From NCBI GenBank assembly GCA_964615885.1, contig CAZTRG010000296.1, positions 10,313 through 74,312 on the forward strand: a stretch of 64,000 nucleotides of DNA, in the 5' to 3' direction. The DNA is from an uncultured Planctomycetia bacterium. GTDB lineage: Bacteria > Planctomycetota > UBA8108. The notes below the pieces were generated by a model that was not told the DNA's origin, searched no databases, and saw nothing but the letters and a program-made list of their open reading frames with translations. Positions 10,269-30,407 of the stretch are shown one piece after another (the stretch's first letter is position 1; every line of letters begins with the position of its first letter). Made by a program: the position numbers and the translations under genes.

Positions 10269-11278
10269 TGGCTCGTTGTCTTTTCGATCCGGCTGCGTAT
10301 TTCCCGGGCCTCACGCGCTGCCAGGGAGTTGGGGAAATTATCAAGCACAACCCGAAGGTAGATATCACAGGCGCGCAGCTCACTCTCATTGAGATAAAAC
10401 TTGGCGATCCTCAGGTTCTTTTCCCCCTCCAGCTCATTGATCTCACGAAGCTTCCCCCTGGCCTCCTCCCAGTATTCACCGCGAGGATAACTCTGAAGAT
10501 AGTTTTTGAAACGCCGGCGGGACTGCAGGAGCTTGTTCTCATCATAGACTGCGCCTCGTACCTGGAGGTACTCCGCCAGCGCAGACTTGTATTCAGCCAG
10601 CTCCTTCCACTCGCTCTCAGACATCTTCACGATGCTGTCATAGAGCAGAACGGATTCCGCATACTTTCCCTGGTCATAATAATAATTGGCCACCTCGAGG
10701 TAGGCATCATCGGCAAAGGAAAGATAGGGATTCTCCGTGACCAGGCCATCGACGGGGTCCAGCAGTATATCGATCCCGTAATCCGGTGAAGACACCTGGA
10801 AAACCTTCAACATGGACCTGGTCTTTCTCTCCTTGAGATAAGCCAGCGCGATTTCAAAGACCCTCCTGCGAGCCTTGTCGATGAGCTCCGGCGATGGGAA
10901 ATCCTCCTGGTAGACCTTCCTGTAGTACTCGAGAGCATCTTCGTAGCGACCCAGCTGGTAGCAGCATTCCCCGAGGTAGAATCGGAGGTCCAGCATCTTC
11001 GCTGCCGCAGTGGAATCGTCAAGAAACCTGAGAGCTGCCAGCGCATCTGCATAGGCCCCTGCCTCAAAGGCCTTCAGCGCCTCCATACGCACCCGCGCGC
11101 TGGAGCCCCATGCACCAGACGCAGGAAGGATCCACCCGCTCTCTGCTGTCCACCTCGTATCACCCGCTCCGTTTTCAATCCTGGGGCTGTCATCAGCCTC
11201 CGGAATCTGGGGGCTGGCACAGCCCAGCGCCAACAAAACGCACAGCAGGCTCGCCAGAGAACGACCTTTCAAAATCAT
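10265..11278 (-). CDS. bamD: TPR lipoprotein, BamD (YfiO)-like outer-membrane assembly factor
   Basis: Lipobox LLALGC. TPR pairs with the BamD-like C-terminal pattern (LRIAKFYLNESELRACDIYLRVVLDNFPNS, compare E. coli [28 protein letters not shown]). Overlaps the lptE-like start by 4 bp. Confidence 0.55.
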   Translation of the reverse strand: MILKGRSLASLLCVLLALGCASPQIPEADDSPRIENGAGDTRWTAESGWILPASGAWGSSARVRMEALKAFEAGAYADALAALRFLDDSTAAAKMLDLRFYLGECCYQLGRYEDALEYYRKVYQEDFPSPELIDKARRRVFEIALAYLKERKTRSMLKVFQVSSPDYGIDILLDPVDGLVTENPYLSFADDAYLEVANYYYDQGKYAESVLLYDSIVKMSESEWKELAEYKSALAEYLQVRGAVYDENKLLQSRRRFKNYLQSYPRGEYWEEARGKLREINELEGEKNLRIAKFYLNESELRACDIYLRVVLDNFPNSLAAREAREIRSRIEKTTSQ

Positions 11279-13541: not shown

Positions 13542-16500
13542 TTACTTATCTGCATCTTCACCCGCTTCCGGCCCTTCCTGCTCAACCCCTTCCGGGCTGC
13601 CCTCCTCCGCAGGTTCGCCACCGGCCTCCGGAGCGCCGCCGGCTTGCTCCTGGGCCTTCTTGAAATCCTCTGCCAGCTCGTTCACCAGGCGCCCGACATT
13701 GCCCTGGCGCTGATGAAGACGCTCAAGCGTCCGCGACCACTGCTCTGAACCCTGGCCATCGTTGCTCTGGCGGAAATCTTCAAGCTGCCCTGTCTGCCGG
13801 TTGATCTCAAGCTGCAGATTCTTGAGCATCAGCAATTCTGCCAGGATCGTCACCAGGGGTTGCCTTCCCTGCTGCTGCAGCTGCTGTTGCTGTTGCTGCT
13901 GCTGTTGTTGTTGCTGTTGCTGCTGCTGGCGCTTCATCAGCTCGAGCTGTTCCTGCAGGGAAGCCATCATCCTCTCCAGGTCGACAACAATTTCCTTCTG
14001 CAGAAACTGGGTAAAGGAATCCGTCTCAAGCTCCAGGAGAAGATCCCGAACCTGTTGCATATCGGCGCTCACATTGTTCAGCATAAAGCTGAAGACCTTG
14101 GAGGACTCTTCCTCAAGGCGCCCGATCAACGAGACCACCTTCTGCGCCAGCTCCCCTTCACCCTGCGCGAGAGGTTCGAGAAGACGCTGCAGAGAGGCTC
14201 TCCTGCGGCGGCTCAAGCGCCCGCTGGGCCTGCTCTCCTGGGCCTTGGCCGTCCCCGCATTGATCTCCAGCTGGGCATCCCTTGCCTCGGTCAACTCGTT
14301 GATCATCGAGACAAGCTCCTGCTCACGCTTTAACTCCGCGAGGCTTTCCTCCTCTCTACGAAGCTCTTCCTCCTGCTGCTGCAGCTTCGCGAGGGCATCC
14401 TCCTGGTTCTTCTCAGCCTCTTCCGGGTTATCCTTCTCCAGGTTTTCAGAGGCCTTCTTCATGTCCCTTGAGGCTTCCTCAAGTTGTTGAGAGCGCTGCT
14501 GCTGCCCGGATGACTTGCTCTGCCGTGCAGCCTGCGAGGTCTGCCGCGACAGCTCTTCCTGCTCCTGGGCCTCCTTCTCAAATTTTTTGCGCCGCTCGAG
14601 CCTGGCCAGCTCTTCTTTTTTCTCCTCCTCAACAGCCTCTTCAGCCTTCTTGAGTTGCTCAAGAGCTTCTTCCTGCTTCTTACGGCTCAGCTCCCTGCGG
14701 CCCTGGGCCGAATCCCTCATCTTGCTGGCAGCCTGCTCCAGGGACCTGGAAATTTCCTGGAGACGTCCAGGCTCCTGCTGGTCCTTGCGCCGGAGCTTCC
14801 GTTCAAGCCGATCGGCCTCTTTCGCTGCCTCCTCCGTCTTGCGGGAAAGTTTCCTGCTAAGGTCACGGCGCTTTTCTTCCTCTGAACGCTTCGCAAGACC
14901 CTCCCTTGCTTTTTGCAGCTCCTTGCTGGCCTGCTCAAGAGCAGCGCCAGCCTCCCTTCCGGACTGCTCGGCCTGTTCCCTGCGTGCTTCGCTGAGCGAC
15001 TCCCTGGCCTGCCTCATCGCCTGCGATGCTTTCTGGAACAGGGAGGCCCCTCTCTTCAGTGCCTCGCGCGCTGATTCAGAAAAGCTCTTCTGTGCCTGCT
15101 CCCCCAGCTGGGCAGAGGATGCCGACGCCTTGCGCGCCAGCCGGCTCTCCTCCTGTTCAAGACCCGCCGTCTGCAGGGAGTTCCTGGCCCGGGCCTCCTT
15201 CAGCTGGCGGCTAATCTCCTCCCTGGCCTTCTCCAGCTCTTCCACCGCAGCAGCCTGGTTCTTTTCCGCCCCGGCGAAGTCTCCCTGCTGGATTTTCCTG
15301 CCGGCCTGCTCATTCTTTCCCGCAGCTGCCGAAAAGTTCTCCCTGGCCTCCCCGGGCAACTCCGCATTCTCAGACTCTTTGCCAAGGCGCTGAATTTTCC
15401 CCTGCAGATCCGCCGTACGGCTCTCCAGCTCCGACTTCAAGCGCGAGATCTCCTGGGCGGCTCGTGCCTGCTCCAGCTCACTGACCCCCTTGCGAATCCT
15501 GGGCTCGGTCTTCTTTCCGGGATCTTTTTCCGACGGCTGGCCCTGCTTCCCAGCCTCCTGCCCGGTTTCCTTTCCGGCTTCCTTTCCGGCTTCCTTCCCA
15601 TCTCCTGGGGTCTTTTCCGTTTTCTCGGGACTGTCATCGCCGGGTGAGTCCTTGCCGGCATCTTTCCCCGGTTGATTTTCACCGCCACCGGACGGCTTTT
15701 CATTACCGCCTTCTTTACCGGTCTTGCCGGGTGAGTCCTGGCCGGCCTCGGGGCTCCCCGCTTTTGCAGCTCCGGCCATTTGCTTCAGCTCTTCAGCCCT
15801 CGATCCAAGGTCGCGCAGGTCTCCGGTCAATCCCCGGGCCTGCCGGATGAGGCCATCGAGCTCCTCAAGAACCTTCTTTGCATCCGCGATGGTCTCCTGG
15901 TCCTTCCGGGACTCTTTACCGCCGGGCAATTTCTCTATTCCCTCGTTAACCCTTTCCTGCAGCTTCTGCAGGGCCTGGGCCTCTGCGAGGGCGCTCTCAA
16001 TCGCCTCACGGTCCAGGGCCTTCCCCTCCGAATCGATTTGATCTACCGGCTTGCCATCAAGCAGCCCCTTCTGCATCTCCAGGGCCTTCCTGATCATCTC
16101 CTGGAGATCCTCCAGCTGGGCTGAATTCTGTTTCGATTCAAGAAACTCCCGGGTCTTATCCAGCAGGCGCTCCTGTTGCTGCTTGAGCTCTGCGGCGATT
16201 TGCCGGTCCTTCTTGAGCTGCTCCAATTGCTTGCCGGTACGGTCCTCGCTGAACTGGCTGGCCTCCAGCACGGAGAGGATTCCCTCGATGACCTTGATCG
16301 CATCATTCTGGCTGGAGACAGCCTCGATAAACTGCTTGTTGGAGAGCATTCCCTCAATCTGGGAGAGGGTGTCAGGCAGGCGCTGGTTCCTGATCTGGCG
16401 GGCAGCCTCTCTCAGGCGCTCCGCATCCTCGGGCTCACTGGCCTCCAGCTTTGCAGCCACCTTCTCCATGTCATTGGCAAGCTTGATGACGATGGCCCGG

Positions 16501-16685
16501 ATCTGTTCCTGCTCGCGCGAGAGCTCCTGGTCGGAGGCCTGCTGCGGCTGCCCCAGGGCTTCTGATGTGGCAAGCGGACACCAGGCCAGGAAACAGATAA
16601 AGCTGACTCTGCAAAGAACTAACCGATTTGGCATGATCAGATACATCTTAACCGACTGTAAGCACGAAGGCATCCCACTCCTCAT
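13542..16685 (-). CDS. Secreted 1047-aa coiled-coil protein, E/K/R/Q/A-rich, with a ~21-residue polyglutamine tract. Last gene of the MoxR/BatA-like operon.
   Basis: Signal peptide (LVLCRVSFICFLAWCPLATSEA). Long heptad-like charged segments. Q17-L-Q3 run. GKEA tandem repeats. ATGA start/stop overlap with the upstream gene at 16682-16685. Confidence 0.6.
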   Translation of the reverse strand: MRSGMPSCLQSVKMYLIMPNRLVLCRVSFICFLAWCPLATSEALGQPQQASDQELSREQEQIRAIVIKLANDMEKVAAKLEASEPEDAERLREAARQIRNQRLPDTLSQIEGMLSNKQFIEAVSSQNDAIKVIEGILSVLEASQFSEDRTGKQLEQLKKDRQIAAELKQQQERLLDKTREFLESKQNSAQLEDLQEMIRKALEMQKGLLDGKPVDQIDSEGKALDREAIESALAEAQALQKLQERVNEGIEKLPGGKESRKDQETIADAKKVLEELDGLIRQARGLTGDLRDLGSRAEELKQMAGAAKAGSPEAGQDSPGKTGKEGGNEKPSGGGENQPGKDAGKDSPGDDSPEKTEKTPGDGKEAGKEAGKETGQEAGKQGQPSEKDPGKKTEPRIRKGVSELEQARAAQEISRLKSELESRTADLQGKIQRLGKESENAELPGEARENFSAAAGKNEQAGRKIQQGDFAGAEKNQAAAVEELEKAREEISRQLKEARARNSLQTAGLEQEESRLARKASASSAQLGEQAQKSFSESAREALKRGASLFQKASQAMRQARESLSEARREQAEQSGREAGAALEQASKELQKAREGLAKRSEEEKRRDLSRKLSRKTEEAAKEADRLERKLRRKDQQEPGRLQEISRSLEQAASKMRDSAQGRRELSRKKQEEALEQLKKAEEAVEEEKKEELARLERRKKFEKEAQEQEELSRQTSQAARQSKSSGQQQRSQQLEEASRDMKKASENLEKDNPEEAEKNQEDALAKLQQQEEELRREEESLAELKREQELVSMINELTEARDAQLEINAGTAKAQESRPSGRLSRRRRASLQRLLEPLAQGEGELAQKVVSLIGRLEEESSKVFSFMLNNVSADMQQVRDLLLELETDSFTQFLQKEIVVDLERMMASLQEQLELMKRQQQQQQQQQQQQQQQQLQQQGRQPLVTILAELLMLKNLQLEINRQTGQLEDFRQSNDGQGSEQWSRTLERLHQRQGNVGRLVNELAEDFKKAQEQAGGAPEAGGEPAEEGSPEGVEQEGPEAGEDADK
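13868..13928. repeat. Imperfect trinucleotide repeat (CTG/TTG)n on the plus strand, equal to (CAG/CAA)n on the coding strand, encoding polyQ
   Basis: ctgctgctgcagctgctgttgctgttgctgctgctgttgttgttgctgttgctgctgctg read directly. About 20 units with mixed synonymous codons. Confidence 0.9.
15564..15599. repeat. Three tandem 12-bp units (ggtttcctttcc / ggcttcctttcc / ggcttccttccc) encoding GKEA-type tetrapeptide repeats in the coiled-coil protein
   Basis: Read from the sequence. The protein shows ...GKEAGKEAGKETGQEAGKQ... Confidence 0.8.
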
Positions 16686-19081
16686 TCTTCTTCCTCCGGT
16701 TCACCCTCACCGCCCCCGAGAAGATTCCTGGTATTGTCACGCAGCCCTTCCTGGCGGCGCTTGATCTCCCTCATCAACTGGATGAGCCCACGCAAATCGC
16801 CGAATTCACTCATTCGTACAACAATAGACTCAAGGTCTCTCTCTACCTCGAGCTGAGAACCAACAATCCTGCCCAGGCTGGCCGGATCCTGGTCCGATTC
16901 CTGGACCAGCGAACGAAGCTCATCGAGCTCCCCCGCGATCCGGTCAGATTTGAGCTTTGAGATCTCAGTTAATTCTTTCTCCAGCCCGGTGAGCCAGTCC
17001 TTCCACTTCTGCTCGCCCACCTTGTTGATCTTCATCTTGGCGAGCAGCCGGCCGAGGTTCCCCGACAGGTCGAGCAATCCTTCCGAAACCCGTACCTGGT
17101 CCTGGCGATGCCGGGAGATGCGTCCGGCCGAATCCTTTCCCAGTTTCTTTCCGAGAAGAAACTGGCTCTGCGATTCCTCGAGGTCCTTTCTTACCGATTC
17201 CTGTCGTCCCCTCAGCCTGTCGGCAATATCACGCAGGGCCATGACCTCACGGGCATACTGGTCCTCGAGATACTCCGGATCAACCACCTGCAGAAGGTAT
17301 TCCTGGGACACTCCGATATTTCCCTTCCCCCCTCCCCCATCACCGAAATCCTCCGCAAGAACAAAGAATTGAAACCGCGCACCCGATGAAGGAGCGCCAC
17401 CATCTCCCCCACCAAGCTCAGCGACCTTCAGGACATACGGATCAAGCTCCGGCTCGCTCTCTCCCCCCGCCGGGCCGGCAGCCGAGACATCGAGCAGGGT
17501 CACCAGGTTGCGCTCAGGCTCGGTCTCTCCGGCAGAATAATAGCTGCCCTGGAGTTCGATTTTTTTCACTGCGTAGTCGTCCTTGATAACTGCAAGGATG
17601 GGAACCTCCGCACGAGGCGACACGTCTTCTGTCAGCCGTTGCGGCTCAACAATCCTCACCACCGGCTTGCGATCGGCGACCGCCTGGATCCTGAAACGCT
17701 CCGATTGAGTACTTCGAAATCCTCCCGGATCTTCAAACTGGAAGAAATAGCTGCCGCTTCCCTCGACCACGAAATTCCCGCTGAACCGCCTTCCCTCTGT
17801 AATCTCCAGGGTGGCGGCTTCCGGGTCAGGCCAGCTGGAGTCCTTTGCCCCGGCAACCTCTTTTTCATCGACCCCTTTTTTCAAAACCAGGTAGGCCTTG
17901 GCAATCTCAACATTGGCTGCCAGCCTGAAGCTGACCTTCGTTCCCGCGGGCACCTTCAAATTACCGTGGCGCTGAACAACCTCTTCAGCACTCTTGCCGG
18001 TATAGACCGGGTTGCGGTAGGCCACCCTGTTGAAGCCCCCCTCCTCCCACTCCTTCATATCGATCCTCGGACGGTTGCGGACCTTGACCTCTACCCATTC
18101 TGTCTCATCCTCGCCGCTGCCATCGAAGGCCTTGAAACTGAAAGCCTTGCTTACATTTCTGAATACATAGGCAAAGCGCCTGGAGCCCTGGCTCGACTCC
18201 ATGGGCTTCCTTCCACCTGAACCATCCTCGAGCTTCCACTCTATCTCGACAATCCTTGGCGAGCCCCGCAGGACACGTACCGCAACAGACAGGTCATCTC
18301 CAACGGCGACAAACTCCGGAGTGCCCTCCTCGATCTCCAGCTGGATACTCTTTGGCCAGTCCACCGACCTGTCGAGAAACACGTTTCTCTGCAGCCAGAT
18401 TGCTGCGAGATCCGGCTGCCAGCCGGCCCCTGCGCCGATCGTAGCTGCCGCCAGGCAAAAGATGCCGAAATTCAACTTCAGGCGCCTGAGATCTATAACC
18501 TTGCCGGAGAGAAGCGAACCAGCCCCTGACTCAACCTCCTCGACCACCGAATCAAGCATCTCCCGGGAGACATCACGGGATCCGGCGCTCTCAGCGCGGC
18601 AGAGCTCAACAGCGGTAACCAGCGCCTGGTTGAGCTCCGGGTTGGCCTCCTCTATAAGCATCGCCAGCTCAGGATCCTCAAGCTTGCGCGAAAGCGGCGC
18701 CAGGACTCCCCGCATAAGCAGCCAGAGAAACCCGGCGGAAGCCCCAAGCAGGAAAACCAGCCTGGCCGCAAAGGGCAATCCCCTCGACTGGCCGGAGCCC
18801 ACCAGGTTGAGGAAATAATCGAGCCCGAAAGAAACCAGCAAGGCGAGGGCCACGATGGATCCCAGGCGCAAAAGACCGCGCAGGAATGAAATCGTGCGGA
18901 TCTTCCGGCGTAGCAGGGCAAGGATCTGCAGGCTCCGCTGCGGCGTCTTTCCTGGTGTTGAGGTCGAGCCTGTCAAAGGATCAGTTTTCCGTGATCGGCA
19001 GATACTGGTTCGGATATTGCAGGATGATCGACGCCATGGCGGTTGCATAGTTGGAGCCCACCAGGTCGGTCCACTGGCCAC
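16682..19081 (-). CDS. Membrane protein with two N-terminal TM helices, a ~680-aa extracytoplasmic region and a C-terminal coiled coil. Part of the MoxR/BatA-like operon.
   Basis: TM segments (LGSIVALALLVSFGLDYFL; LVFLLGASAGFLWLLM). Gly/acidic stretches (GGGDGGAPSSG, DFGDGGGGKG). The annotated ATG at 19081 overlaps the upstream gene by 100 nt; a TTG at 18976, 5 nt after the upstream stop, is an alternative start. Confidence 0.45.
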   Translation of the reverse strand: MASGPTWWAPTMQPPWRRSSCNIRTSICRSRKTDPLTGSTSTPGKTPQRSLQILALLRRKIRTISFLRGLLRLGSIVALALLVSFGLDYFLNLVGSGQSRGLPFAARLVFLLGASAGFLWLLMRGVLAPLSRKLEDPELAMLIEEANPELNQALVTAVELCRAESAGSRDVSREMLDSVVEEVESGAGSLLSGKVIDLRRLKLNFGIFCLAAATIGAGAGWQPDLAAIWLQRNVFLDRSVDWPKSIQLEIEEGTPEFVAVGDDLSVAVRVLRGSPRIVEIEWKLEDGSGGRKPMESSQGSRRFAYVFRNVSKAFSFKAFDGSGEDETEWVEVKVRNRPRIDMKEWEEGGFNRVAYRNPVYTGKSAEEVVQRHGNLKVPAGTKVSFRLAANVEIAKAYLVLKKGVDEKEVAGAKDSSWPDPEAATLEITEGRRFSGNFVVEGSGSYFFQFEDPGGFRSTQSERFRIQAVADRKPVVRIVEPQRLTEDVSPRAEVPILAVIKDDYAVKKIELQGSYYSAGETEPERNLVTLLDVSAAGPAGGESEPELDPYVLKVAELGGGDGGAPSSGARFQFFVLAEDFGDGGGGKGNIGVSQEYLLQVVDPEYLEDQYAREVMALRDIADRLRGRQESVRKDLEESQSQFLLGKKLGKDSAGRISRHRQDQVRVSEGLLDLSGNLGRLLAKMKINKVGEQKWKDWLTGLEKELTEISKLKSDRIAGELDELRSLVQESDQDPASLGRIVGSQLEVERDLESIVVRMSEFGDLRGLIQLMREIKRRQEGLRDNTRNLLGGGEGEPEEEE

Positions 19082-20183
19082 CAGCCTCCTGCAACAGGAG
19101 CAGATCCTGTCTTATCGCCTCGTACCAACGCTGCCAGAAGCTGCCGCCTTTCTGAAAGGCTGCCTGCACTGCGTAGTACTGGAAATAATAATAATCAAAG
19201 GTGTAGCGAGCCTCTCCCCGAAGCGGACGCTCCCGCCAGATGTAGCGAAGCCCCTCGTTGATCTGAAAGGCATCGTATTCTCCTGCACTGTAAAGAGTCG
19301 TCACTCCTGCCGCCGTCAAGGCCGGGGTCCAGCGACTGTGAACCCCCCTGAACTCAAGGCCCAGCTGGTAGGTAAAAGCCCCGACCCCGGGGACGAAGCT
19401 CTTCTTGACATAGTTTACGGCCTTATCGATCGTCCCCGATGGGACCTCGATCCCTGCATTGCGGGCTGCACGAAGAGCCATCATCTGGCAAACCGTGATC
19501 GACATATCTGAATCCTGGGCACCTGGACGGTACCGCCAGCCGCCTTCCGGATTCTGGGCGTTGACAATCAACCTGATAGAGCTCTTCAGGGCCCGTTTCA
19601 TCCTGTCGGTATCACGATAGGAACCGGTTCCATAGGCTTCCGCCAGGAACAGGGTGGCGAAGGCGTGGCTGTACATCCGCGAGCCATTGGCACTGATAAA
19701 ACCATTGGCCGCAGATACCCGGCTGATCACATATTCGAGTGCTTTCTCAAGCACCTCGCAGAAGGTGACCTTTCTGCCGTTCTTCATGACATAGCCGGCA
19801 GAGCCCTGGCCCGGCAGAACGCCATGAGCCAGGAAGGCGATCCCGGCAAGACCGGTCACCCCCACATGTGGAGCGACGGTTCCCCGGTAGGTCATATGAA
19901 CCTTGCGACCGACCCTGTCGGTCCAGGAGCCATCGCGATTCTGGTTCAGGGCGAGAAATTTGAGCCCCTTTTCAATCGCCCCCGCGGTAGAAGCATGCAC
20001 TCCGCGAGCCAGCGGCCTGGGCTTCACTCGAGGGCTTGGCGGCTTCTTTTCCTGTGCGAAGGATAAGACCGGGAGCCCTGAAACCAGGCAGATCGCCACC
20101 AGCAGCGAGAAACGCACAAAAAGCGGCCTGGAGAAATAGTTGGGGGGTTCTTTTAACAGTTTTCCGCTGTCCATCGGGAACAT
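18981..20183 (-). CDS. Secreted prenyltransferase / squalene-hopene-cyclase-like (alpha/alpha-toroid) repeat protein
   Basis: Signal peptide. Repeats of the QW-like signature (AIEKGLKFLALNQNRDGSW; NAQNPEGGWRY; GGQWTD). Paralogous to the C-terminal domain of the 41270..42976 protein. Confidence 0.6.
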   Translation of the reverse strand: MFPMDSGKLLKEPPNYFSRPLFVRFSLLVAICLVSGLPVLSFAQEKKPPSPRVKPRPLARGVHASTAGAIEKGLKFLALNQNRDGSWTDRVGRKVHMTYRGTVAPHVGVTGLAGIAFLAHGVLPGQGSAGYVMKNGRKVTFCEVLEKALEYVISRVSAANGFISANGSRMYSHAFATLFLAEAYGTGSYRDTDRMKRALKSSIRLIVNAQNPEGGWRYRPGAQDSDMSITVCQMMALRAARNAGIEVPSGTIDKAVNYVKKSFVPGVGAFTYQLGLEFRGVHSRWTPALTAAGVTTLYSAGEYDAFQINEGLRYIWRERPLRGEARYTFDYYYFQYYAVQAAFQKGGSFWQRWYEAIRQDLLLLQEAGGQWTDLVGSNYATAMASIILQYPNQYLPITEN

Positions 20184-20291
20184 CCGGGCTGAGCCTGGGG
20201 CCTTGCTGTAACTACCTTGGGGATTTTACCGCCAATGATACGTAAAATCCTTTGAATAAAGGCTTTTGAGGCCCGGGGAGCGGCCTGAACG

Positions 20292-22838: not shown

Positions 22839-22931
22839 CTCGTACTGCCTGCTAATGAATGACTTCCGCTGAAACTATCTTATCTTCCTCTCGGGCACTT
22901 CGCCCACATTACTTTAGCCGGGGCCGGTTGC

Positions 22932-25469
22932 TCAAACCAGGCGTACCGCCTTGCGCAGTATCCACTCCATTGCGAGAATCGAGACAATCAGCACCACGAC
23001 CCACCACTCATCCCAGAGGTTTTGAGCCTTCGGTGTACGTTCGCTTGTGTGGGTAATTCCCTGCACCTTCTCAACAGCCTTCATGATATCGGGGAAATCA
23101 AAGTAGGCGCCGCCGGACAATTCAGCAACCTGCTTGCCGAGGGTCCTGTTGAGGCGGGTATCACGGGCTTCCAGGGCAGGAACCTCCACCGTGTAGGAGG
23201 TGAATGCAGAGCGCTCCTGGGGCGTACCAAGCCAGATATCGTGCCGCCCCCTGGTACCGGCTGAAATACTTCCCCGGTAGATCCCCTGGCCCTGGAGGTG
23301 CAGAGCCAGCTCGATCTCCTGGACGCTCTCTTCGGATTCTCCCTGCACCTGGTGGTAAACCGAGATGGTTTCGTCCTCGGAAGGATTCATGTTCGCATCA
23401 TAAACCTGGGCCTCTACGCCCACGCTCTCTCCGATACTGTAGACCTCCTTGTCAGAGGTGATCGTGAAACGCGGGGTTTTTCCAAGCAGCCTCCCCGCAG
23501 CAACGAAGCGGCAGACCTGGCCCCAGAACCTGTAGAAGTGGAGGTTGTCCACTCCTGCGCGCCAGCGCCAGGTGTTGTCAACAGCACTGAAGAAGGTCCT
23601 GCCCTTTCCGTAATTCATGAAGGCAAAAATAACCAGTGGCTTCGGGGGATTGCTCAGCGGCTGGGTCAGCTCAGGATGCTGGGCCAGCACCACCGCATTG
23701 CCCTTGGGCCGACCGGCCCTGGCGAACCAGAAAAACCCGGGCAGGTGATCGTAGAAACGCCCATCCTCGTTTTCCCAGAGCTGAAGGTTCCGCTCCGGGT
23801 CGTTGTCGAGCCTCATCACAGGATGCTCGCGGCCCACAGCACTCAGCTTGACGTTGAAAGACTTTGTCACCGGGGAATCAAAATCGTTCAGGGTACCTGC
23901 CTCGCTCACCTGGACAGGAAGAAGGGTGTAGAGATCAGAAGAACGCGGATAGCGCGATGGGTTATGGTGCGGGCCGCTGAGAAAGACCACTCCTCCCCCT
24001 GCTGCAACAAACTCCTTGAGCAATTCAAGCCGGGCAAGACCAAGGTGACGCTCAGGGTCGACATCTCCGAGGATGATCACGTGGTATTTAAAGAGCTCAT
24101 CCCGCTGGGATGGGAAGGCGTTCAGCGCAGGCACCCCGGGGGAAGAATCCTGGGTAAACTCCGGATCCGCAGAGAAAAGAAAGATCTGGGTCTCCATCGT
24201 CTTGTCCCGGATCAGGGCATTCTTGAGGTAGCGATACTCCCAGCGGGGAAGGTACTCGGCGTAGAGCACCTTGATCTTCTGGTCCAGCACAGTGATGTTG
24301 CGGGAGAGGGAGGTGTTGTCAGAGAAGACCTCCCCTCCCTGGAACTCCACCTCGACAGTGGCTGTCATCTTTCCGGGTTTTTTCGGGTGGTGAATGAAGC
24401 GGAGTCCCTGGCGTTTCCCCCCACCCTCCAGCACGATGTACTGGGTGTCGACAATAACGGAATCGATACGCAGGTCCACCCGCACTCGCTCTCCCTCGAA
24501 ACCATCGGCCACCACCGACACATCCAGGGGGACATCATCATCGACAAGAACGACATCATTCACATCCACATTGGTAACCCGGATATCCTTCGGCTCATCC
24601 GGGTTGCCGACCCCTACCGCGAAAACAGGGATCTTGCGTTCTCCCAGTCCCCTGGCAAATTCCGTAAGCGAAATCGTATCAGCATTCTGCTGGAAATCGC
24701 TCAGCATGATCACGCCGGAAACCTCCTCGCGGCGCTTGCCGAAGCCGAGCCCCAGGACACCGGAAACCGCGTCCCTGAGTCCCTCGGCTACCTTGGTCTC
24801 CTGCACCCGCTGGTCCCCCCGAACCTTTGAATAGGCAGGCAGGATCTCATCTGCCTCTTCTGTATCTTCTCCTCCTGCCTCCTCGGAGCCTTCGGTGGCG
24901 GAAGAATCATCACCGGCCCCGAGCTTCGAGTAGGTCTTCAGGCTGTTGACCGACCCGCTGAAAGTGTAAACCGCCAGCTTGGCTTTCTTTCTCAGCTTAT
25001 CTATAAAGCCGATCTCCTGGTCCCGCACCAGCCTTCGGACAAGATCATAACGGGTCATCTCTTCACCCGCCGCAGGCCCCAAAAGCTCGGCGATCGCTTC
25101 AGAGATCTCAGGCTGGGAATACTTGTCTCGAATGTCCTGGCTGAGGGAATCGTCCACCAGCAGAACGAGGGTGCTGTCGGTGGTCTCGTAGGTTTTCTTC
25201 TGTCGCACCGGCTGGGCGATCATCAGCAGTGCCAGCACCAGCACCAGGAACCGCAAGGCCCCAAGGGTCCAGCGCCAGCGCGGATTGCCTACCGGCTTTT
25301 CGCGCTTGTAGAAGAAGGTAACCCAGCCGACCACCAGGGGAAGAATGACAAGGACCACAACCCATGGCTCGGGCATCTCGAGCCAGCGAATCTTTTCCTC
25401 TGTCACGAGTCCGGGCTGTGCCCCGGCCTGCGCGAAACAGCCAGGCGTAAAAAAAGCTGTCGGCATCAA
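22932..25469 (-). CDS. BatA-like protein: N-terminal double-TM aerotolerance-regulator domain plus VWA domain, and a long C-terminal region with a terminal TM
   Basis: PWVVVLVILPLVVGW...LRFLVLVLALLMIAQP TM pair. MIDAS motif LVLLVDDSLSQDI (DxSxS). The likely true start is the internal Met at ~25376 (MPEPWVVV); the ORF as listed overlaps the upstream gene by ATGA. Confidence 0.7.
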   Translation of the reverse strand: MMPTAFFTPGCFAQAGAQPGLVTEEKIRWLEMPEPWVVVLVILPLVVGWVTFFYKREKPVGNPRWRWTLGALRFLVLVLALLMIAQPVRQKKTYETTDSTLVLLVDDSLSQDIRDKYSQPEISEAIAELLGPAAGEEMTRYDLVRRLVRDQEIGFIDKLRKKAKLAVYTFSGSVNSLKTYSKLGAGDDSSATEGSEEAGGEDTEEADEILPAYSKVRGDQRVQETKVAEGLRDAVSGVLGLGFGKRREEVSGVIMLSDFQQNADTISLTEFARGLGERKIPVFAVGVGNPDEPKDIRVTNVDVNDVVLVDDDVPLDVSVVADGFEGERVRVDLRIDSVIVDTQYIVLEGGGKRQGLRFIHHPKKPGKMTATVEVEFQGGEVFSDNTSLSRNITVLDQKIKVLYAEYLPRWEYRYLKNALIRDKTMETQIFLFSADPEFTQDSSPGVPALNAFPSQRDELFKYHVIILGDVDPERHLGLARLELLKEFVAAGGGVVFLSGPHHNPSRYPRSSDLYTLLPVQVSEAGTLNDFDSPVTKSFNVKLSAVGREHPVMRLDNDPERNLQLWENEDGRFYDHLPGFFWFARAGRPKGNAVVLAQHPELTQPLSNPPKPLVIFAFMNYGKGRTFFSAVDNTWRWRAGVDNLHFYRFWGQVCRFVAAGRLLGKTPRFTITSDKEVYSIGESVGVEAQVYDANMNPSEDETISVYHQVQGESEESVQEIELALHLQGQGIYRGSISAGTRGRHDIWLGTPQERSAFTSYTVEVPALEARDTRLNRTLGKQVAELSGGAYFDFPDIMKAVEKVQGITHTSERTPKAQNLWDEWWVVVLIVSILAMEWILRKAVRLV

Positions 25470-27790
25470 CCTGCCCTCCTGCCGAAAAACTGGGCAAGCG
25501 CCGTCTCGAGCAACAGGAGTGCAATCACCGCCGCCAGGCAGTGCTTCCAGAACTCGCGGCCAAGCAATTGCTTCTGCTCTTGCCGCCGGCTTTCCACCTT
25601 CTCTGAATAATCGAGGAACTGTTCAGGCTGCACCTCAAAGTGGGTCCCCAGCTCCGAGTCGGCTATTCCACGGAGGTCGCTCTCATCGGTTGAAATATTG
25701 ACGCTGAAATACTCAACGGAGTTGGACTTCGCAGCATCCCCTGGCGGGACATCACTGCCTTCAAGGCTGCGGTTCAGATCCAGCCTGTAGAGCCCCGGGA
25801 TATCTGTCTGGCCATAGGTGATGGAAAATCTCCCGGGGTCGTCAAGTTCGCGCATCGGAGTGCGGGCAGTACGCCCCCCGGGGAGGCTTCTCCCTGGAAT
25901 CGGTGGCGCGCGGAGCATGACCTCCAGAGCGAATTCAGAGCCATCGTAAAACCTCTGAAATTCATCGCCGATCCCCAGGTTGTCATTCAGGGTGCGAAAG
26001 CCAACCAGGTAGGCTATCGATTCATAGAGGAACACCACGTAATCCTGCCAGGCAGGAAACTCGTTCCAGTCATCATCTGCAGATGAGGTGAACCACATGA
26101 CCCGCCCACGGCCGTAGGAGTTGTCAAAGACAGCAGGGCTCCTGTCAAGATCGTTGTAGCGGCAGAAGATCCGGGCGCCGGTCTCCTCCTTCGGCACTGC
26201 AAGCTTCATGAAACGGTAGAAGGGAACCAGGGCCCTGTGCAGCTCGGTGCGTTCCTTGTGCTGGGCAAAATAATCAGCCACGGGGTGAGAGCTGTCTGAA
26301 AACTGCAGGTACACAGGGCTGAGGCTGTCCCCGCGCTGCTCAACCACCTCGAAGGGCAGAAGGCTCTTGGGGCCAGGGGTGTAAAAGAGACTGTTGTAAA
26401 CCTGGGGGTCGACATTATCCCCCATGAACACAACCAGGAACCCGCCCTCGTCAACATAGCGTTGCAGGGTGGCAAGCTCGGCAGGGGCGATGGATTCCAG
26501 GTTCGCCAGGACCACCATGGAATACCTTTTCCATTCCATATCACGGACAAGGTCTGCAGACAGGTTGACCGGCTGAAAGGGTGTAATCCGGCCACCGAGA
26601 ACAGCCAGGGCATCATCCCTCGGCTGCAGCGCCGTCTGCAGGTAGAAGGTCTCGGTCTCGAGTGGATCGACCGCCGGGTCACCATCCACCAGCAGGACCT
26701 CTATTTCATCACGCACCTCGACAGCGAGGAAGCGCTTGTTGTCGATCACAAGGCCATCGGTACGCACCTCGGCAACAACTGTATGGTAGCCGGGTTCATC
26801 AAAACGATAGGGAAGGCTGCGGGTGACCGTACCCCCGGCAGGAATCCTCAGGATCTCTCCCTCCCCGGCTTCCCCACTCTCCGCTCCCATGGCCGGATCG
26901 ACCTGGATAGTAAAAACAAGGCCATCGGCCTCCTTGTCCCCGTAGTTCCTGAGCGTCACCTGGATCTCAACTGTTACTCCCTTTGAGAAGAGATCAGGCT
27001 TTACCGCCAGGCTGGTAACGGCCACGTTGGGCCGGTTGCTCTCCGATGCTCCAATTCGTGAAAACACGACATCGTGCCCATCCTGCTTGAGCTCCTTGAG
27101 CAGCTGCTTGAGCTCCGGAGAGCGTGGACCTTCATCTCCCAGCCAGTCCTTTCGCTGCAGGTCGCTCAGCAGGACGATCCTGCAGGGTTCAACAGGGCCT
27201 CCATCGGAAGCTACGAACTGCTCGCTGAGGTCCTTGATGGAGCGCAGCGAGGTCACCAGGCGCAGCCCCCTGCTGGTACCGGTCAAACGGCCAAGCTCCG
27301 CCTCCAGCAGGGCCCGGTTGGTGCTGTTCATCTGCTTTCGCTCAAGCACCACCGCCGGCACATGCCCAAGCGTCATCACTGCCACATAGGCATCTTCCTC
27401 CACATAGGTACCCACCACGTCCAGGATCGTCTGCTTCGCACTCTCAAGCAGGCTCGACCCTCCATCGACGTAGTCCATGCTGAAGGATGTATCGACCGCA
27501 AAGATCCAGTTCTTGTTGCCGGCAACAGTGCTCGAGGCGGTGTCAGACAGCATGCGGGGACGCGACACCGCCAGGGCCAGCAGAAGCACAATCAGGCACC
27601 GGATCAACAAGAGCAGGAGGTTCTGTACCTGCAGCCGGCGGCGGCTCTTTTTGAGCGCCTTCAGCAGGAACTCCATGGCAGCCCATTTGCGGCGTCGATA
27701 GCGCTGGCGGTTGATCAGGTAGATGAGGATCGGGACACCAACGAGGGCGCCTAGCCAGAGCAGGAGGGGATTGACAAAAAAACTGCTCAC
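25466..27790 (-). CDS. BatA-like protein: N-terminal double-TM domain plus VWA domain, 774 aa
   Basis: PLLLWLGALVGVPILIYLI...LLLLLIRCLIVLLLALAVSRP. MIDAS motif IFAVDTSFSMD. ATGA overlap with the upstream DUF58 gene. Confidence 0.7.
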   Translation of the reverse strand: MSSFFVNPLLLWLGALVGVPILIYLINRQRYRRRKWAAMEFLLKALKKSRRRLQVQNLLLLLIRCLIVLLLALAVSRPRMLSDTASSTVAGNKNWIFAVDTSFSMDYVDGGSSLLESAKQTILDVVGTYVEEDAYVAVMTLGHVPAVVLERKQMNSTNRALLEAELGRLTGTSRGLRLVTSLRSIKDLSEQFVASDGGPVEPCRIVLLSDLQRKDWLGDEGPRSPELKQLLKELKQDGHDVVFSRIGASESNRPNVAVTSLAVKPDLFSKGVTVEIQVTLRNYGDKEADGLVFTIQVDPAMGAESGEAGEGEILRIPAGGTVTRSLPYRFDEPGYHTVVAEVRTDGLVIDNKRFLAVEVRDEIEVLLVDGDPAVDPLETETFYLQTALQPRDDALAVLGGRITPFQPVNLSADLVRDMEWKRYSMVVLANLESIAPAELATLQRYVDEGGFLVVFMGDNVDPQVYNSLFYTPGPKSLLPFEVVEQRGDSLSPVYLQFSDSSHPVADYFAQHKERTELHRALVPFYRFMKLAVPKEETGARIFCRYNDLDRSPAVFDNSYGRGRVMWFTSSADDDWNEFPAWQDYVVFLYESIAYLVGFRTLNDNLGIGDEFQRFYDGSEFALEVMLRAPPIPGRSLPGGRTARTPMRELDDPGRFSITYGQTDIPGLYRLDLNRSLEGSDVPPGDAAKSNSVEYFSVNISTDESDLRGIADSELGTHFEVQPEQFLDYSEKVESRRQEQKQLLGREFWKHCLAAVIALLLLETALAQFFGRRAG

Positions 27791-28692
27791 CGCCTTAGAC
27801 TCCCTGCTCGCTTGGCCAGGTAGGTAGAGAGCGCCACATCAAGCGGGTCACTCGTGTCAAGAGCCACGTAATCAAATCGATTATTCCGGCAGGCCCTTCG
27901 CAGGCGGCTGAGGAACTTCTCCAGCTCCTCGAGATAGGCCTCCTTGAGCAGGCGGGGATTGGCCAGGACCTCCTCCATTCCTTCCAGCCCCTCAAACATG
28001 GTCATATTCTGAAAGGGAAAGGTCCTCTCATCGGTGTCGAGCAGGTGAAAGAGGATCACCTCGTGGTTGCAGTAGCGCAGGTGCTTCAGCCCCCGCTCGA
28101 TGTGCTCGATATCATCCAGCATGTCTGAGATGATGACGACCAGGCCCCGGCGGTGAATCCTGCCGGCAAACTCGTGCAGGATAACACCGAGATCGGTCTT
28201 TTCCTTCAAGCCGGGATTCTCAGCCAGCTCCAGGAGGGTCTTGAGATGAGATCCTGTCGAGCGGGCCCCCACCATGTCGCAGACCTTCTCATCAAAAAGA
28301 GCGAGCCCGACGGCATCCTGCTGTTGCAGAAGCAGGTAGGAGAGCGAGGCTGCCACCATCACGCCGTAGTCAAACTTGCTGACCCCATCGGATCCGTAGC
28401 TCATGGACTCCGAGGAATCCAGGAGTATGTGAGTACTGAGGTTGGTCTCTTCCTCGTACTGCTTGATGTAAAAGCGGTCGGAGCGTCCGAAGACCTTCCA
28501 GTCAATATGACGGACATCATCACCGGGAACGTATTCACGGTGTTCAGCAAACTCGATACTGAAGCCGTGGTACGGACTCCGGTGGAGGCCGGAAATAAAC
28601 CCCTCCACAATCAACCGGGCCTTGATCTCCAGGCGTGATATGCCGTTCAGGACCTTGGGATCGAGGTACTTGGAAGGCGATTCAGCAGCCAA
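27787..28692 (-). CDS. DUF58 (VWA-like) protein, the usual partner of MoxR ATPases
   Basis: Characteristic motifs HRSPYHGFSIEFAEHREYVPGDDVRHIDWKVFGRSDRFYIKQYEEE and HILLDSSESMSYG. Located immediately downstream of moxR. Confidence 0.85.
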   Translation of the reverse strand: MAAESPSKYLDPKVLNGISRLEIKARLIVEGFISGLHRSPYHGFSIEFAEHREYVPGDDVRHIDWKVFGRSDRFYIKQYEEETNLSTHILLDSSESMSYGSDGVSKFDYGVMVAASLSYLLLQQQDAVGLALFDEKVCDMVGARSTGSHLKTLLELAENPGLKEKTDLGVILHEFAGRIHRRGLVVIISDMLDDIEHIERGLKHLRYCNHEVILFHLLDTDERTFPFQNMTMFEGLEGMEEVLANPRLLKEAYLEELEKFLSRLRRACRNNRFDYVALDTSDPLDVALSTYLAKRAGSLRR

Positions 28693-28767
28693 TCATCTCT
28701 CCCTGAAAACTCTCAACCGATGAAATTAAAGTACAGGACAAAGGCAATGCCCGCCCGCAGTTCTCCA

Positions 28768-29883
28768 CTACCCGCTGGCAGCTGCCCCTGCCGCACCGGT
28801 ATCGTGTACGGGGGTTTCCTCCACCAGCCTGTCGATAATCGTCTCAGGACTGACTCCTTCGGCTTCCGCACTGAAGTTCGTCAGGATCCTGTGGCGCAGT
28901 ACAGGATAAGCAACCGCCTGGACATCCTCGGCAGAAACGTGGTTGCGGCCATAGAGAACAGCCCGGGCCTTGGCTCCAAGAATGAGGTACTGCGAAGCTC
29001 GCGGCCCCGCTCCCCATGCAAGCCAGCCCTTGATGTAATCGGGAGCCTCATCCTTATTGATCCGGGTTGCCCGTGTAAGCCTGAGGACGTAACGAATGAC
29101 CTCATCTGCAACCGGTACCTTTCGGACGATTTCCTGCAAATCCCTGATCTCCTCACCATTGAGGATTTCTTCAACCTCGGCCTCCATGCCGACCGTGGTC
29201 CGCTTCATGATCTCGACCTCTTCATCTTCGGTCGGGTAATCCACGAGAATATTGAACATGAAACGGTCGAGCTGGGCCTCTGGAAGCGGATAGGTACCTT
29301 CCTGCTCAATCGGGTTCTGGGTCGCAAGGACGAAGAAGGGCTCATCAAGCTCGTGCTTCTTGCCCCCTGCTGTCACCTGGCGCTCCTGCATGGCCTCCAG
29401 CAAGGCCGCCTGGGTCTTGGGGGGAGTCCTGTTGATCTCATCTGCAAGAATGACGTTGGCGAATACCGGTCCCTGGAGAAACCTGAAGTTCCTCTCCCCG
29501 GTACCCTTGTCCTCCTGGATCACCTCGGTACCCGTGATATCCGATGGCATGAGATCCGGGGTGAACTGGATTCTTGAAAAAGACAGGGAGAGGCAGCGCG
29601 CAAGGGTGCTGATGATCAGGGTCTTGGCAAGCCCGGGAACCCCCACCAGCAGGCTGTGCCCCCTGGCGAAAATTGAGATCAGAATCTGCTCGAGGACCTC
29701 GTCCTGGCCAACGATCACCTTGCCCAGCTCCGCACGGATCCTGTCGTAACTCTCCCGCAGTTTTTTTACCGTTTCAAGGTCACTCGAATCGAGGGGTGCC
29801 TCTGTTGGGGCCTGGGAGCTCTCGTCCTGGTTTTCGCCGGCTTCAGTTTTGTCGATGTCTTCTTCGCTCATCTCGACCTTCAC
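28768..29883 (-). CDS. moxR: MoxR-family AAA+ ATPase
   Basis: [33 protein letters not shown] (Walker A). [28 protein letters not shown] (Walker B / sensor). Classic MoxR/AAA_3 layout. First gene of the minus-strand operon. Confidence 0.9.
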
Positions 29884-30407
29884 CGCCCTTTCCTGCAGGG
29901 CAAAATACCCGCCTGGCTATCCAGCCGGCCGGCATCGTGCTGAGTTTAAATATTGAATTCCAGATGGTCCCTGAAGCCCTCACCGGGAAAGAACACTCCC
30001 CGGAGAACCTCCTTTTTCCAGCAGCCGAAGTAGCTACGTAAGCTATGGAAGTGAAAGGGTTTCAAGCCGCAGGAATGATAAAATCACCCTCCAGCCTAGT
30101 CAAACACTATTAGCCCCCCGCTCAAGGGCGCGACCCGCGCTCAACATTTCCCTGGCGCCGGTCACAGCCACTCACTTTCACTGCCACTTGCAGCCGGCCA
30201 CACCCCCGAAGAACCGGGGACAGGTTCAAGGCCACACCGCAGGCTGCCGGCAGGCACTGGCAGGATCGGCAAAGAAGGCGGTGCCCCTCTGGAGTTGTAC
30301 TTGCTTTCTCTTAGGCTGCCCATATACTTACCCGATCAATTTTCACTTAAGCGGCAGCCAGCGCTGCACTTGTCTCCTTCACAGGAGACGACTCCAGGGA
30401 GTCTCAG

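Follow-up and report, generated by a model that had tools for sequence, protein, structure and literature searches.

A probable Planctomycetota-type expansion of the MoxR–DUF58–BatA–DUF4175 envelope operon

The window, a 64,000-nucleotide stretch of a contig from an uncultured Planctomycetia bacterium, carries eight tightly packed open reading frames on its minus strand, running from 29883 down to 13542 and numbered here g1 to g8 in that order. A reading of the letters alone (hereafter, the sequence-only reading) had proposed eight co-directional genes, and all eight were recovered at the same positions. The cluster is real and is kept across the Planctomycetota, and an arrangement found again in dozens of independent contigs is far more than chance would produce. 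From predicted hydrophobic segments, g1 and g2 lack transmembrane (TM) and export signals; g3, g4, and g7 are membrane anchored; and g5, g6, and g8 begin with export-type hydrophobic segments. Three junctions are start/stop overlaps of 4 nt that had been described as ATGA: the overlaps themselves exist, but ATGA occurs solely at g7/g8 (16682–16685), with GTGA at g2/g3 (27787–27790) and TTGA at g3/g4 (25466–25469; TGATG if g4 starts with the ATG at 25466–25464). The g6 stop and the g7 start are separated by a 5-nt gap, and gaps of 93 and 108 nt lie on either side of g5.

The first two genes encode the cytoplasmic pair. The g1 product (28768–29883, minus strand; an alternative ATG at 29871 may be the true start) is a MoxR-type AAA+ ATPase, matching AAA_3 (4.6e-64) and AAA_lid_2, with a Walker A motif GVPGLAKT and a Walker B motif ILADE. 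That of g2 (27787–28692, minus strand) is a DUF58 protein (6.9e-45), the VWA-like partner of MoxR, with a MIDAS motif of the DxSxS form (DSSES) and a weak VWA_2 match in Pfam. A search for TM segments found none in g1 or g2.

The next two genes encode BatA-type membrane proteins. The g3 protein (25466–27790, minus strand) has a BatA_N double-TM anchor, a periplasmic VWA domain (DTSFS), a GATase1-like domain, and a C-terminal TM helix: Pfam returns BatA (1.6e-16), VWA_2, and a GATase1-like Glyco_hydro_42M match, TIGR02226 also matches, and TM helices are predicted at residues 8–26, 58–76, and 751–769. Its paralogue g4 (22932–25469, minus strand) is built the same way: a pair of TM helices near the N terminus is followed by a VWA-like region (DDSLS), one resembling GATase1, and a last TM helix at the C terminus; the GATase1-like region is common to both (BLASTP, 1e-4). 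The domain assignments of the sequence-only reading hold in Pfam for g1, g2, g3, g5, and g6; its claim of two BatA_N-plus-VWA proteins stands for g3, but g4, despite the same layout, has no BatA_N match in Pfam and only faint matches to VWA and GATase1_like, VWA being matched by g4 orthologues. In the BatA-type protein BB0173, the VWA domain was shown by experiment to face the periplasm (PMC5700661).

The following two genes encode predicted exported proteins. The g5 protein (20292–22838, minus strand) has a hydrophobic segment near its N terminus, then helical repeats and a beta-propeller of the PQQ/BamB-like kind (PQQ_2, 1.5e-10, residues 493–673), and an AF2 model of low confidence (pLDDT 57) places helices at residues 150–300 and strands at 390–848; homologues at the g5 position in distant loci are often ~1500 aa in length, with three PQQ_2 stretches. 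Although its propeller is of the BamB type and g5, like this outer-membrane assembly lipoprotein, is exported, g5 differs from BamB in its size (848 aa, of which the N-terminal ~480 aa lie outside the propeller), scores 20.6 bits against BamB equivalog models (cut-offs 285–423), and showed no conserved lipobox cysteine when one was sought. The g6 protein (18981–20183, minus strand) is a single alpha/alpha-toroid of the prenyltransferase/squalene-cyclase repeat type (SQHop_cyclase_C, 9e-8) with three QW-like repeats and a predicted signal-like segment at residues 25–43. Its family comprises at least 3744 clusters at E ≤ 1e-30, each named one of which is from the Planctomycetota.

The last two genes are best considered together. 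We place the g7 start at the TTG at 18976 (16682–18976, minus strand), giving 764 aa, as backed by an identical 764-aa database protein (P0021); a 799-aa frame overlapping g6 was rejected. The sequence-only reading had given g7 two TM helices and a ~680-aa outside domain, which the structural model replaces with three N-terminal membrane-length helices (the third too weakly hydrophobic to pass a simple cut-off), a helical domain of ~70 aa in the cytoplasm that links helices 2 and 3, and ~565 aa outside; Ig-like beta-sandwiches lie in the periplasm, and the C terminus forms a bundle of four helices. No Pfam family was found for g7 or g8. By profile comparison, g7 is a remote DUF4175 homologue: hhalign gives 99.5% against a true DUF4175 protein, one that scores above the Pfam threshold for that family and sits in a DUF4159–MoxR–DUF58–BatA–DUF4175 operon, and the part best conserved with DUF4175 is the helical domain (residues ~92–163). 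The g8 product (13542–16685, minus strand) is a predicted exported, acidic, E/Q/K/R-rich helical protein (15% E, 11.5% Q, net charge −27) with a predicted signal-like segment at residues 22–40, a G/P/K/E-rich linker at residues 301–400, and a run of 16 glutamine codons (residues 920–935; 13881–13928, minus strand; regular-expression search of the translation) that is limited to close relatives. Its C-terminal region matches the C terminus of proteins in which g7 and g8 are fused (P0037, 92.8%, E 3.9e-7; P0040, 78%). On these similarities, g7 and g8 together are the DUF4175-type component, which is a single polypeptide in other lineages.

Upstream of moxR lies a sigma-70-like promoter (TTGACT-17-TATCAT; 30075–30103, minus strand), the only promoter-like site found in a scan of 12–31 kb; in six relatives, neither the hexamers nor the sequence around them varies, within an intergenic alignment that is elsewhere 64% identical. 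Independent promoters or terminators in the gaps had been named as signs of separate transcription units: the single promoter found is the one upstream of moxR, and the internal gaps contain no convincing terminator and no stable hairpin. The g5–g6 gap holds a conserved non-coding block (20223–20261, minus strand; CTTTATTC...GATTTTACGTATCAT...TAAAAT), with 64 of 144 columns of this gap identical among relatives, compared with 41–47 for the other gaps, and TAGAAT-like hexamers are found again in the g5–g6 gap of distant loci. The promoter scan did not flag this block, which is possibly, as its conservation suggests, an internal promoter or regulatory site, and which leaves room for an internal promoter despite the single scanned one.

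All eight genes are found, in unchanged order, in 12 of 12 related genome loci, down to 30% g5 identity, as well as in a 7.87-Mb chromosome and in many metagenome loci with flanks unrelated to those in the window; the sequence-only reading had set loss of synteny between the distal genes (13542–22838) and moxR against its claim of a single module, and the neighbourhood comparison found genes 5 to 8 with moxR–DUF58–batA across related loci instead. The single-module claim draws further strength from metagenome loci anchored on g6, in most of which the genes flanking the cluster in the window are absent: where both sides extend 3 kb or more, a partner gene is present in 28 of 29, and where the upstream side extends 8 kb or more, g3 or g4 is present in 22 of 26. 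In distant lineages the core genes are again accompanied by g6 and, in the slot of g5, by a propeller protein, and a second g6 paralogue follows g8 in many relatives. Rearranged loci include one with g6 upstream of moxR (L017), one ordered g3–g5–g6–g4 (L089), and another (L102); g3 is fused to g4 in L019, and two loci (L035 and L040) show neither g7 nor g8 on the downstream side. Because both kinds of fusion (g3+g4, g7+g8) and the rearrangements argue for it, the genes of the cluster appear to be functionally linked.

Operons of the MoxR–DUF58–BatA–DUF4175 type (with or without DUF4159) in other phyla, of which L021 (a Longimicrobiales MAG), L022, and L024 are examples, share the gene order of the cluster, with an AAA_3 MoxR, a DUF58 protein, a BatA_N/VWA membrane protein, and a g7 homologue that is a long membrane protein with TM helices at its N terminus. 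The cluster differs in having a pair of large BatA-type paralogues, in dividing the DUF4175-type protein between g7 and a g8 that is exported on its own, and in the insertion of a propeller and a toroid-repeat protein; DUF4159 was looked for among the eight proteins and not found. Four components had been thought to lie outside any known MoxR system, which holds for g5 and g6 but not for g7 and g8; judged by homology, the propeller and toroid proteins are the genuine additions to the core operon. The Rhizobium leguminosarum operon cmdA-D (RL3499–RL3502) is probably of the same class. The Bat operons of Bacteroides, Leptospira, and Borrelia (MoxR, DUF58, BatA–BatE) have in common with the cluster MoxR, DUF58, and BatA_N-anchored proteins whose VWA domain is periplasmic, and their biochemical role is likewise poorly understood (PMC5700661; see also PMC3557215). 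Among g3 to g8, no TPR/SH3 BatB–E-type or BatD-type protein was detected. Bat operons are not known to include DUF4175-like, propeller, or toroid proteins.

A different parallel is offered by the MoxR–vWA–beta-propeller ternary conflict systems (Kaur et al. 2020, PMC7159879), in which the propeller would serve as a sensor or effector against invaders. These share with the cluster MoxR and vWA proteins, a membrane/helical-repeat/propeller component, and extra helical proteins. They occur in planctomycetes, and their third component joins a membrane segment, TPRs, and a propeller, accompanied by alpha-helical proteins of no known type and L12/ClpS-domain insertions. The architecture of g5 is of this kind, some g7 orthologues have a ~70-aa insert weakly matching the Ribosomal_L12 C terminus (E 0.012), g1 has a secondary match to PF20030 (bpMoxR), and MoxR evolves far more slowly than either g5 or g8. 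Such an identity is nonetheless very improbable. The defining vWA–propeller fusion is missing (no propeller family matches g2, g3, or g4), DUF58 and BatA are present, and the P-loop is the canonical GVPGLAKT, not GXXXTAKS; g1 scores 214.6 bits against AAA_3 versus 48.5 against bpMoxR, which also matches the MoxR of ordinary DUF4159/DUF4175 operons. No PADLOC model matches any of the eight proteins, the neighbours in this lineage are housekeeping genes (guaB, guaA, recO, and folP), and export signals are present on the propeller, toroid, and helical proteins, in contrast to conflict systems, which are described as acting inside the cell.

The cluster might also be two or more units, with moxR–DUF58–g3–g4 forming a Bat-type operon and g5 to g8 being neighbours unrelated to it, held in place solely by synteny across the lineage or transcribed from a promoter of their own. 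The gaps flanking g5, the conserved block with its −10-like hexamer, and the loci whose membrane genes have no adjoining moxR or DUF58 (L019 and L023) would fit such a division, and the flanks of the cluster are syntenic as well in its closest relatives, so that conserved gene order in those genomes does not single out the cluster. We find this quite improbable, however, since the association of g3/g4 with g7/g8 and g6 holds in loci with unrelated flanks and outlasts rearrangement and gene fusion, g7-like proteins directly follow BatA-type genes in all distant contexts examined, and functional linkage would survive the presence of an internal promoter. The family of g6 suggests yet another role, the handling of isoprenoid/hopanoid lipids or other hydrophobic envelope molecules, with g6 as an active cyclase/prenyltransferase-like enzyme and the other proteins as its assembly or transport apparatus: its SQHop_cyclase_C match exceeds the Pfam threshold, the solved structures nearest to it in sequence are of proteins with an SQHop_cyclase_C domain (E ~5e-4), and its QW-like repeats and recurrent second paralogue agree. 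Such a role is unlikely all the same, as g6 is a single ~340-aa barrel versus the two-barrel, ~630-aa cyclase, its family has neither the DxDD nor the DDxxD catalytic motif, it scores 29 bits against NCBIfam cyclase models (cut-off 322.7), and its export is unusual for cyclases; matches to the alpha-macroglobulin TED domain within the family suggest a binding toroid.

We consider it reasonably probable that the region is a Planctomycetota-type expanded MoxR–DUF58–BatA–DUF4175 envelope operon, working as an assembly or remodelling machine for envelope upkeep. As such a machine, a MoxR hexamer and its VWA-like adaptor DUF58 would act in the cytoplasm as a chaperone pair and engage small cytoplasmic parts of membrane proteins, the best candidate target being the helical domain of g7, with ATP used to assemble or remodel an inner-membrane-anchored periplasmic complex. 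The scaffold would be built from the MIDAS VWA domains that g3 and g4 contribute, from g7 through its Ig-like domains and helix bundle, and from the long, acidic, helical g8; the basic propeller g5 and the toroid g6 may dock on it as binding modules. We infer an envelope-spanning machine from the domains, from its fit to the predicted topology, and from analogy with related operons.

Mutants of the related cmdA-D operon of Rhizobium are reported to show envelope and morphology defects (PMC5700661), and by analogy the role of the cluster would be the upkeep of envelope integrity or cell shape under stress. If the operon is as proposed, a widespread but poorly understood envelope operon would here have been enlarged by a secreted propeller and a secreted toroid protein.

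Eight long open reading frames, arranged head-to-tail on the minus strand from 29883 to 13542, form an expanded Planctomycetota-type MoxR–DUF58–BatA–DUF4175 operon, the additions being a propeller protein (g5) and a toroid-repeat protein (g6). Pfam and NCBIfam profile searches upheld the domains that the sequence-only reading had assigned to the cluster genes. The first gene, g1 (28768–29883), encodes a MoxR-type AAA+ ATPase whose matches to AAA_3 (214.6 bits; cut-off, 27) and AAA_lid_2 (65.8 bits; cut-off, 22.7) both exceed Pfam gathering and whose translation reads GVPGLAKT at Walker A and ILADE at Walker B, fitting GxxGxxK[ST] and hhhhDE. Its VWA-type partner adjoins it 75 nt downstream: the DUF58 protein g2 (27787–28692), which is VWA-like and has the MIDAS sequence DSSES. 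The product of g3 (25466–27790) combines a BatA/TIGR02226 double-transmembrane N-terminus with VWA_2 and a GATase1-like domain, and its paralogue g4 (22932–25469) yields faint VWA and GATase1_like matches and nothing else; MIDAS-type DxSxS motifs occur in g2, g3, and g4 alike. Among the distal genes, g5 (20292–22838) carries a PQQ_2 (BamB-type) propeller in its C-terminal half, g6 (18981–20183) matches SQHop_cyclase_C at 31.9 bits (cut-off, 26.1), and g7 (16682–18976) and g8 (13542–16685) return no Pfam or NCBIfam family match even at E ≤ 10.

A hydrophobicity scan finds no membrane segment in g1 or g2, two N-terminal helices plus one C-terminal helix in both g3 and g4, and a single N-terminal hydrophobic segment, consistent with a signal peptide, in each of g5, g6, and g8. 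In both g3 and g4 the loop joining helices 1 and 2 is strongly basic, and most of each protein, VWA domain included, should therefore face the periplasm, as has been demonstrated by experiment for the BatA-type protein BB0173 (PMC5700661). The AlphaFold model of g7 (pLDDT, 83.5) contains long helices at residues 13–59 and 69–96, a helical domain (101–154), a third long helix (164–199), a series of beta-sandwich domains (212–565), and a C-terminal four-helix bundle (567–756). The g5 model is of low confidence (pLDDT, 57), and the helical repeats that it places between the N-terminal hydrophobic segment and the PQQ-type propeller are to be read accordingly. Glutamate makes up 15% of g8 and glutamine 11.5%; the protein also has a linker rich in G/P/K/E and a stretch of 16 consecutive glutamines. 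Net charges are +16 and +17 for the exported g5 and g6, and −16 and −27 for g7 and g8; opposite charges of this kind would be compatible with electrostatic docking.

The identity of g7 and g8 follows from remote alignments. A bona fide DUF4175 protein (P0042; PF13779 at 44.4 bits versus a gathering cut-off of 27.3), whose gene comes after MoxR–DUF58–BatA, aligns over its residues 10–581 with the g7 family (hhalign probability, 99.5%; E = 7.7e-23; 488 columns), and g7 occupies the operon position that the DUF4175 gene has in other clusters, downstream of the BatA gene(s). The DUF4175 model itself hits 1 of the 19 g7 family members, at a best E value of 0.0033. No match between g8 and P0042 was detected; the conserved region at the C-terminal end of g8 can be aligned with the C-termini of two fused g7+g8 proteins, P0037 (1,296 aa; hhalign, 92.8%; E = 3.9e-7) and P0040 (1,259 aa; 78%; E = 1.8e-5). 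This relation was found by hhalign alone, HMMER with our own g8 model having missed both proteins; a motif common to g8 and P0037 reads LAELLMLKNLQLEINRQT in the former and LAQLVVLRDLQAEINERT in the latter. Because of the alignments to P0042, P0037, and P0040, g7 and g8 are, as judged from sequence, the separated halves of a long DUF4175-like protein that other lineages make as one polypeptide. The claim that all four distal proteins stand outside known MoxR systems is therefore not supported: g7 and g8 are of the DUF4175 type, and only g5 and g6 are additions. The g7 family is very large (clustered at 50% identity, 19,956 clusters at E ≤ 1e-3 and 7,175 at E ≤ 1e-30), yet it is not captured by any Pfam model.

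Several g7 orthologues in the loci compared with the window (L003:13867–16356, and those of L009, L013, L015, and L001) have an insert of ~70 aa between the first beta-sandwich strands (alignment columns ~330 to 400); the g7 of the window and those of L014 and L016 have no such insert. The inserted sequence follows the pattern ELxxxLxxxGxxV, reminiscent of the C-terminal domain of ribosomal L7/L12, and one insert gives a weak Ribosomal_L12 match (E = 0.012); passages of PMC7159879 report L12/ClpS-domain insertions in MoxR–vWA propeller systems. In L002, L006, and L009, contigs that are otherwise near-identical, g8 is split or frameshifted with breaks at the G/P/K/E and polyQ regions, which suggests that the repeats vary in length or were misassembled.

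Among the candidates tried for g5, BamB was rejected (equivalog models, 20.6 bits versus cut-offs of 285.2 and 423; the candidate lipobox cysteine varies), and a lipoprotein reading was ruled out because the cysteine of LVSC is not conserved. The g6 protein (400 aa) consists of one barrel-sized region with three Qx2-5GxW (QW-like) repeats. It shares QW-type repeats and the SQHop_cyclase_C match with squalene-hopene/terpene cyclases, whereas those enzymes have two alpha/alpha barrels, ~630 aa, and a DxDD motif, against a single barrel size without DxDD in g6. That g6 is a catalytic terpenoid enzyme is thus unlikely: neither DxDD nor DDxxD occurs in its operon-linked orthologues, and cyclase models stay below cut-off (NCBIfam, 29 bits versus 322.7). 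The g6 family comprises at least 3,744 clusters, and all the named ones among the matches listed are Planctomycetota. A second, more divergent toroid-repeat paralogue with ~33% identity to g6 comes after g8 in many relatives (L001:20029–21186, L016:18904–20097, L105:17196–18299) and in many metagenome loci (e.g., L029, L046, L058, L060, L066, L068, and L103); the window lacks it, and corC comes directly after g8.

Conservation of the eight genes as a module was assessed at several distances. A word-based homologue search with g5 produced only 11 matches, all close, and profile searches and locus scans were therefore used to find others. The genome scan with the g5 family gave 12 loci, all in Planctomycetota MAGs, and the eight-gene order is kept in every one (12/12) as far as contigs reach, down to 30 to 33% g5 identity. 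The flanks of these loci share genes as well (guaB and guaA; corC and recO), and lineage synteny alone could explain the order there. The metagenome scan with the g6 family yielded at least 579 relatives, and among the best 80 loci, which were examined, at least one partner gene is present in 28 of the 29 with ≥3 kb on both sides; g3 or g4 in 22 of the 26 with ≥8 kb upstream; a g5 homologue in 21 of the 33 with ≥3 kb upstream; and g7 or g8 in 31 of the 43 with ≥3 kb downstream. Of 29 metagenome loci that carry the module and were checked for the window's flanking genes, only 5 have any of them; the association of the genes is therefore module-specific. That proximal and distal genes are independent units is contradicted both by this persistence where flanks differ and by the gene fusions; the synteny of the distal genes with moxR, on which the sequence-only reading had staked its single module, is found in order in the genome loci and again in metagenome loci with other flanks.

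Searching with a g7 family profile extended the comparison to distant homologues (23 to 25% identity), whose contexts were scored with HMMs built for g1 to g8. One such locus, L017, is arranged [PQQ protein]–g6–MoxR–DUF58–g3–g4–g7–g8, where orthology of the upstream PQQ protein to g5 is unsupported (hhalign probability, 1%, with only the C-terminal 553 aa in the locus). L019 has fused g3+g4, then a long g7, a small gene, and g6; L023 has DUF58–g3–g4 followed by the same three. The Longimicrobiales MAG locus L021 reads DUF4159–MoxR–DUF58–BatA–DUF4175, and L022 and L024 have similar cores, DUF4159 included. Two layouts can be described: type I, g1 to g8 in order, often followed by the second g6 paralogue, with a g5 often of about 1,500 aa containing three PQQ_2 stretches; and type II, without the propeller, in which g7 and g8 are one ORF and g6 lies after a small gene. 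Rearranged forms occur in L089 and L102. The small type II protein (245 to 281 aa; L019:13888–14733, L023:13163–13900) always lies between the fused g7–g8 and g6 and has no Pfam match.

Gene junctions within the cluster are tight. Of three proposed ATGA overlaps, all are 4-nt overlaps, but only g7/g8 reads ATGA, with GTGA at g2/g3 and TTGA at g3/g4; the g6/g7 gap is 5 nt, and the three larger gaps are 75, 93, and 108 nt. Translation of g7 begins with TTG (18976) rather than with the GTG upstream: orthologues begin at the equivalent position, and the 764-aa product is identical to the database protein P0021. The sole sigma-70-like site in the 12 to 31 kb interval (TTGACT-17-TATCAT, 30103–30075) is upstream of moxR and is an invariant island in an intergenic alignment of six relatives that is 64% identical overall. 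Folding of the internal gaps is in no case better than that of shuffled sequence, and the one terminator-like match within them (g1–g2 gap, 28756–28736) is weak. The g5–g6 gap contains a conserved ~40-nt block (20223–20261, minus strand) ending in the −10-like TAAAAT/TAGAAT, and similar hexamers recur in this gap in distant loci; the block may be an internal promoter for g6 to g8 or a processing site. Separate promoters or terminators in the gaps, named beforehand as evidence against a single unit, are thus nowhere convincing, but this block could hold an internal promoter.

Compared with known systems, the MoxR–DUF58–BatA–DUF4175 operons of L021, L022, and L024 have the same core as g1 to g3, in one direction and with a BatA_N double-TM VWA protein; they differ in having DUF4159 (PF13709), which none of the eight cluster proteins matches. 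Of the parts of Bat operons, those of the BatB–E type are not in evidence, with no TPR, SH3, or BatD family match in g3 to g8 and the NCBIfam BatB model far below its cut-off (17.5 bits versus 350). We consider it very improbable that the cluster is instead an Aravind-type MoxR–vWA beta-propeller ternary conflict system, a type that, in passages of PMC7159879, occurs in planctomycetes and has a TM-TPR-propeller component. The hydrophobic segment, helical repeats, and propeller of g5 recall this third component, a likeness by description that draws on a low-confidence model. Sequence profiles find no propeller family match in g2, g3, or g4, where the hallmark vWA-propeller fusion (~4-blade) would lie. 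The P-loop of g1 is GVPGLAKT rather than the GXXXTAKS that those passages give as frequent in conflict systems, PADLOC matches none of the cluster proteins, and the genomic setting is housekeeping.

Elsewhere in the window are two more very large ORFs, both on the minus strand: 35675–40330 (1,551 aa; no Pfam match at E ≤ 1e-5) and 49377–53111 (1,244 aa). GC and AT skew are both strongly negative across 50 to 54 kb, just as they are in g8, pointing to a further low-complexity coding region rich in purines. A gene for a BamD/YfiO-like TPR lipoprotein (10265–11278) lies three genes downstream of g8, also on the minus strand; near relatives share its synteny, along with that of corC and recO, and distant loci show no linkage between it and the module.

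The most likely mechanism is one in which the cytoplasmic MoxR/DUF58 chaperone pair would work on cytoplasmic parts of the membrane proteins, with the helical domain of g7, the segment best conserved with DUF4175, as the best candidate target. The outcome would be the assembly or remodelling of a complex in the periplasm, made up of VWA, Ig-like, helical, propeller, and toroid parts. By analogy with related operons, for which passages of PMC5700661 cite envelope and morphology phenotypes, this complex would serve envelope integrity. A bolder and rather doubtful proposal is a Planctomycetota-specific, ATP-driven envelope machine, whose MoxR/DUF58 motor would act via the g7 cytoplasmic domain to build or tension a periplasmic scaffold (VWA/MIDAS domains, Ig-like stalks, the ~1,000-residue acidic helical protein, propeller, and toroid) that shapes or tethers the unusual planctomycete envelope; if true, a new class of trans-envelope systems would have the g7 family at its membrane core.

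To our knowledge, MoxR–DUF58–BatA operons are among the most widespread bacterial clusters without a known biochemical function, and planctomycete envelope biology is still debated. Literature searches for MoxR, DUF58, BatA, DUF4159, and DUF4175 in planctomycetes found no account of this cluster, which extends a known, functionally obscure type of system and defines no new type. Without establishing a new principle by itself, the variant ties a DUF4175-type protein to the MoxR–DUF58–BatA system through homology and gene fusion, identifies two recurrent exported partners, the propeller and the toroid protein, and gives experimental work on culturable planctomycetes a concrete list of parts and a topology to start from.
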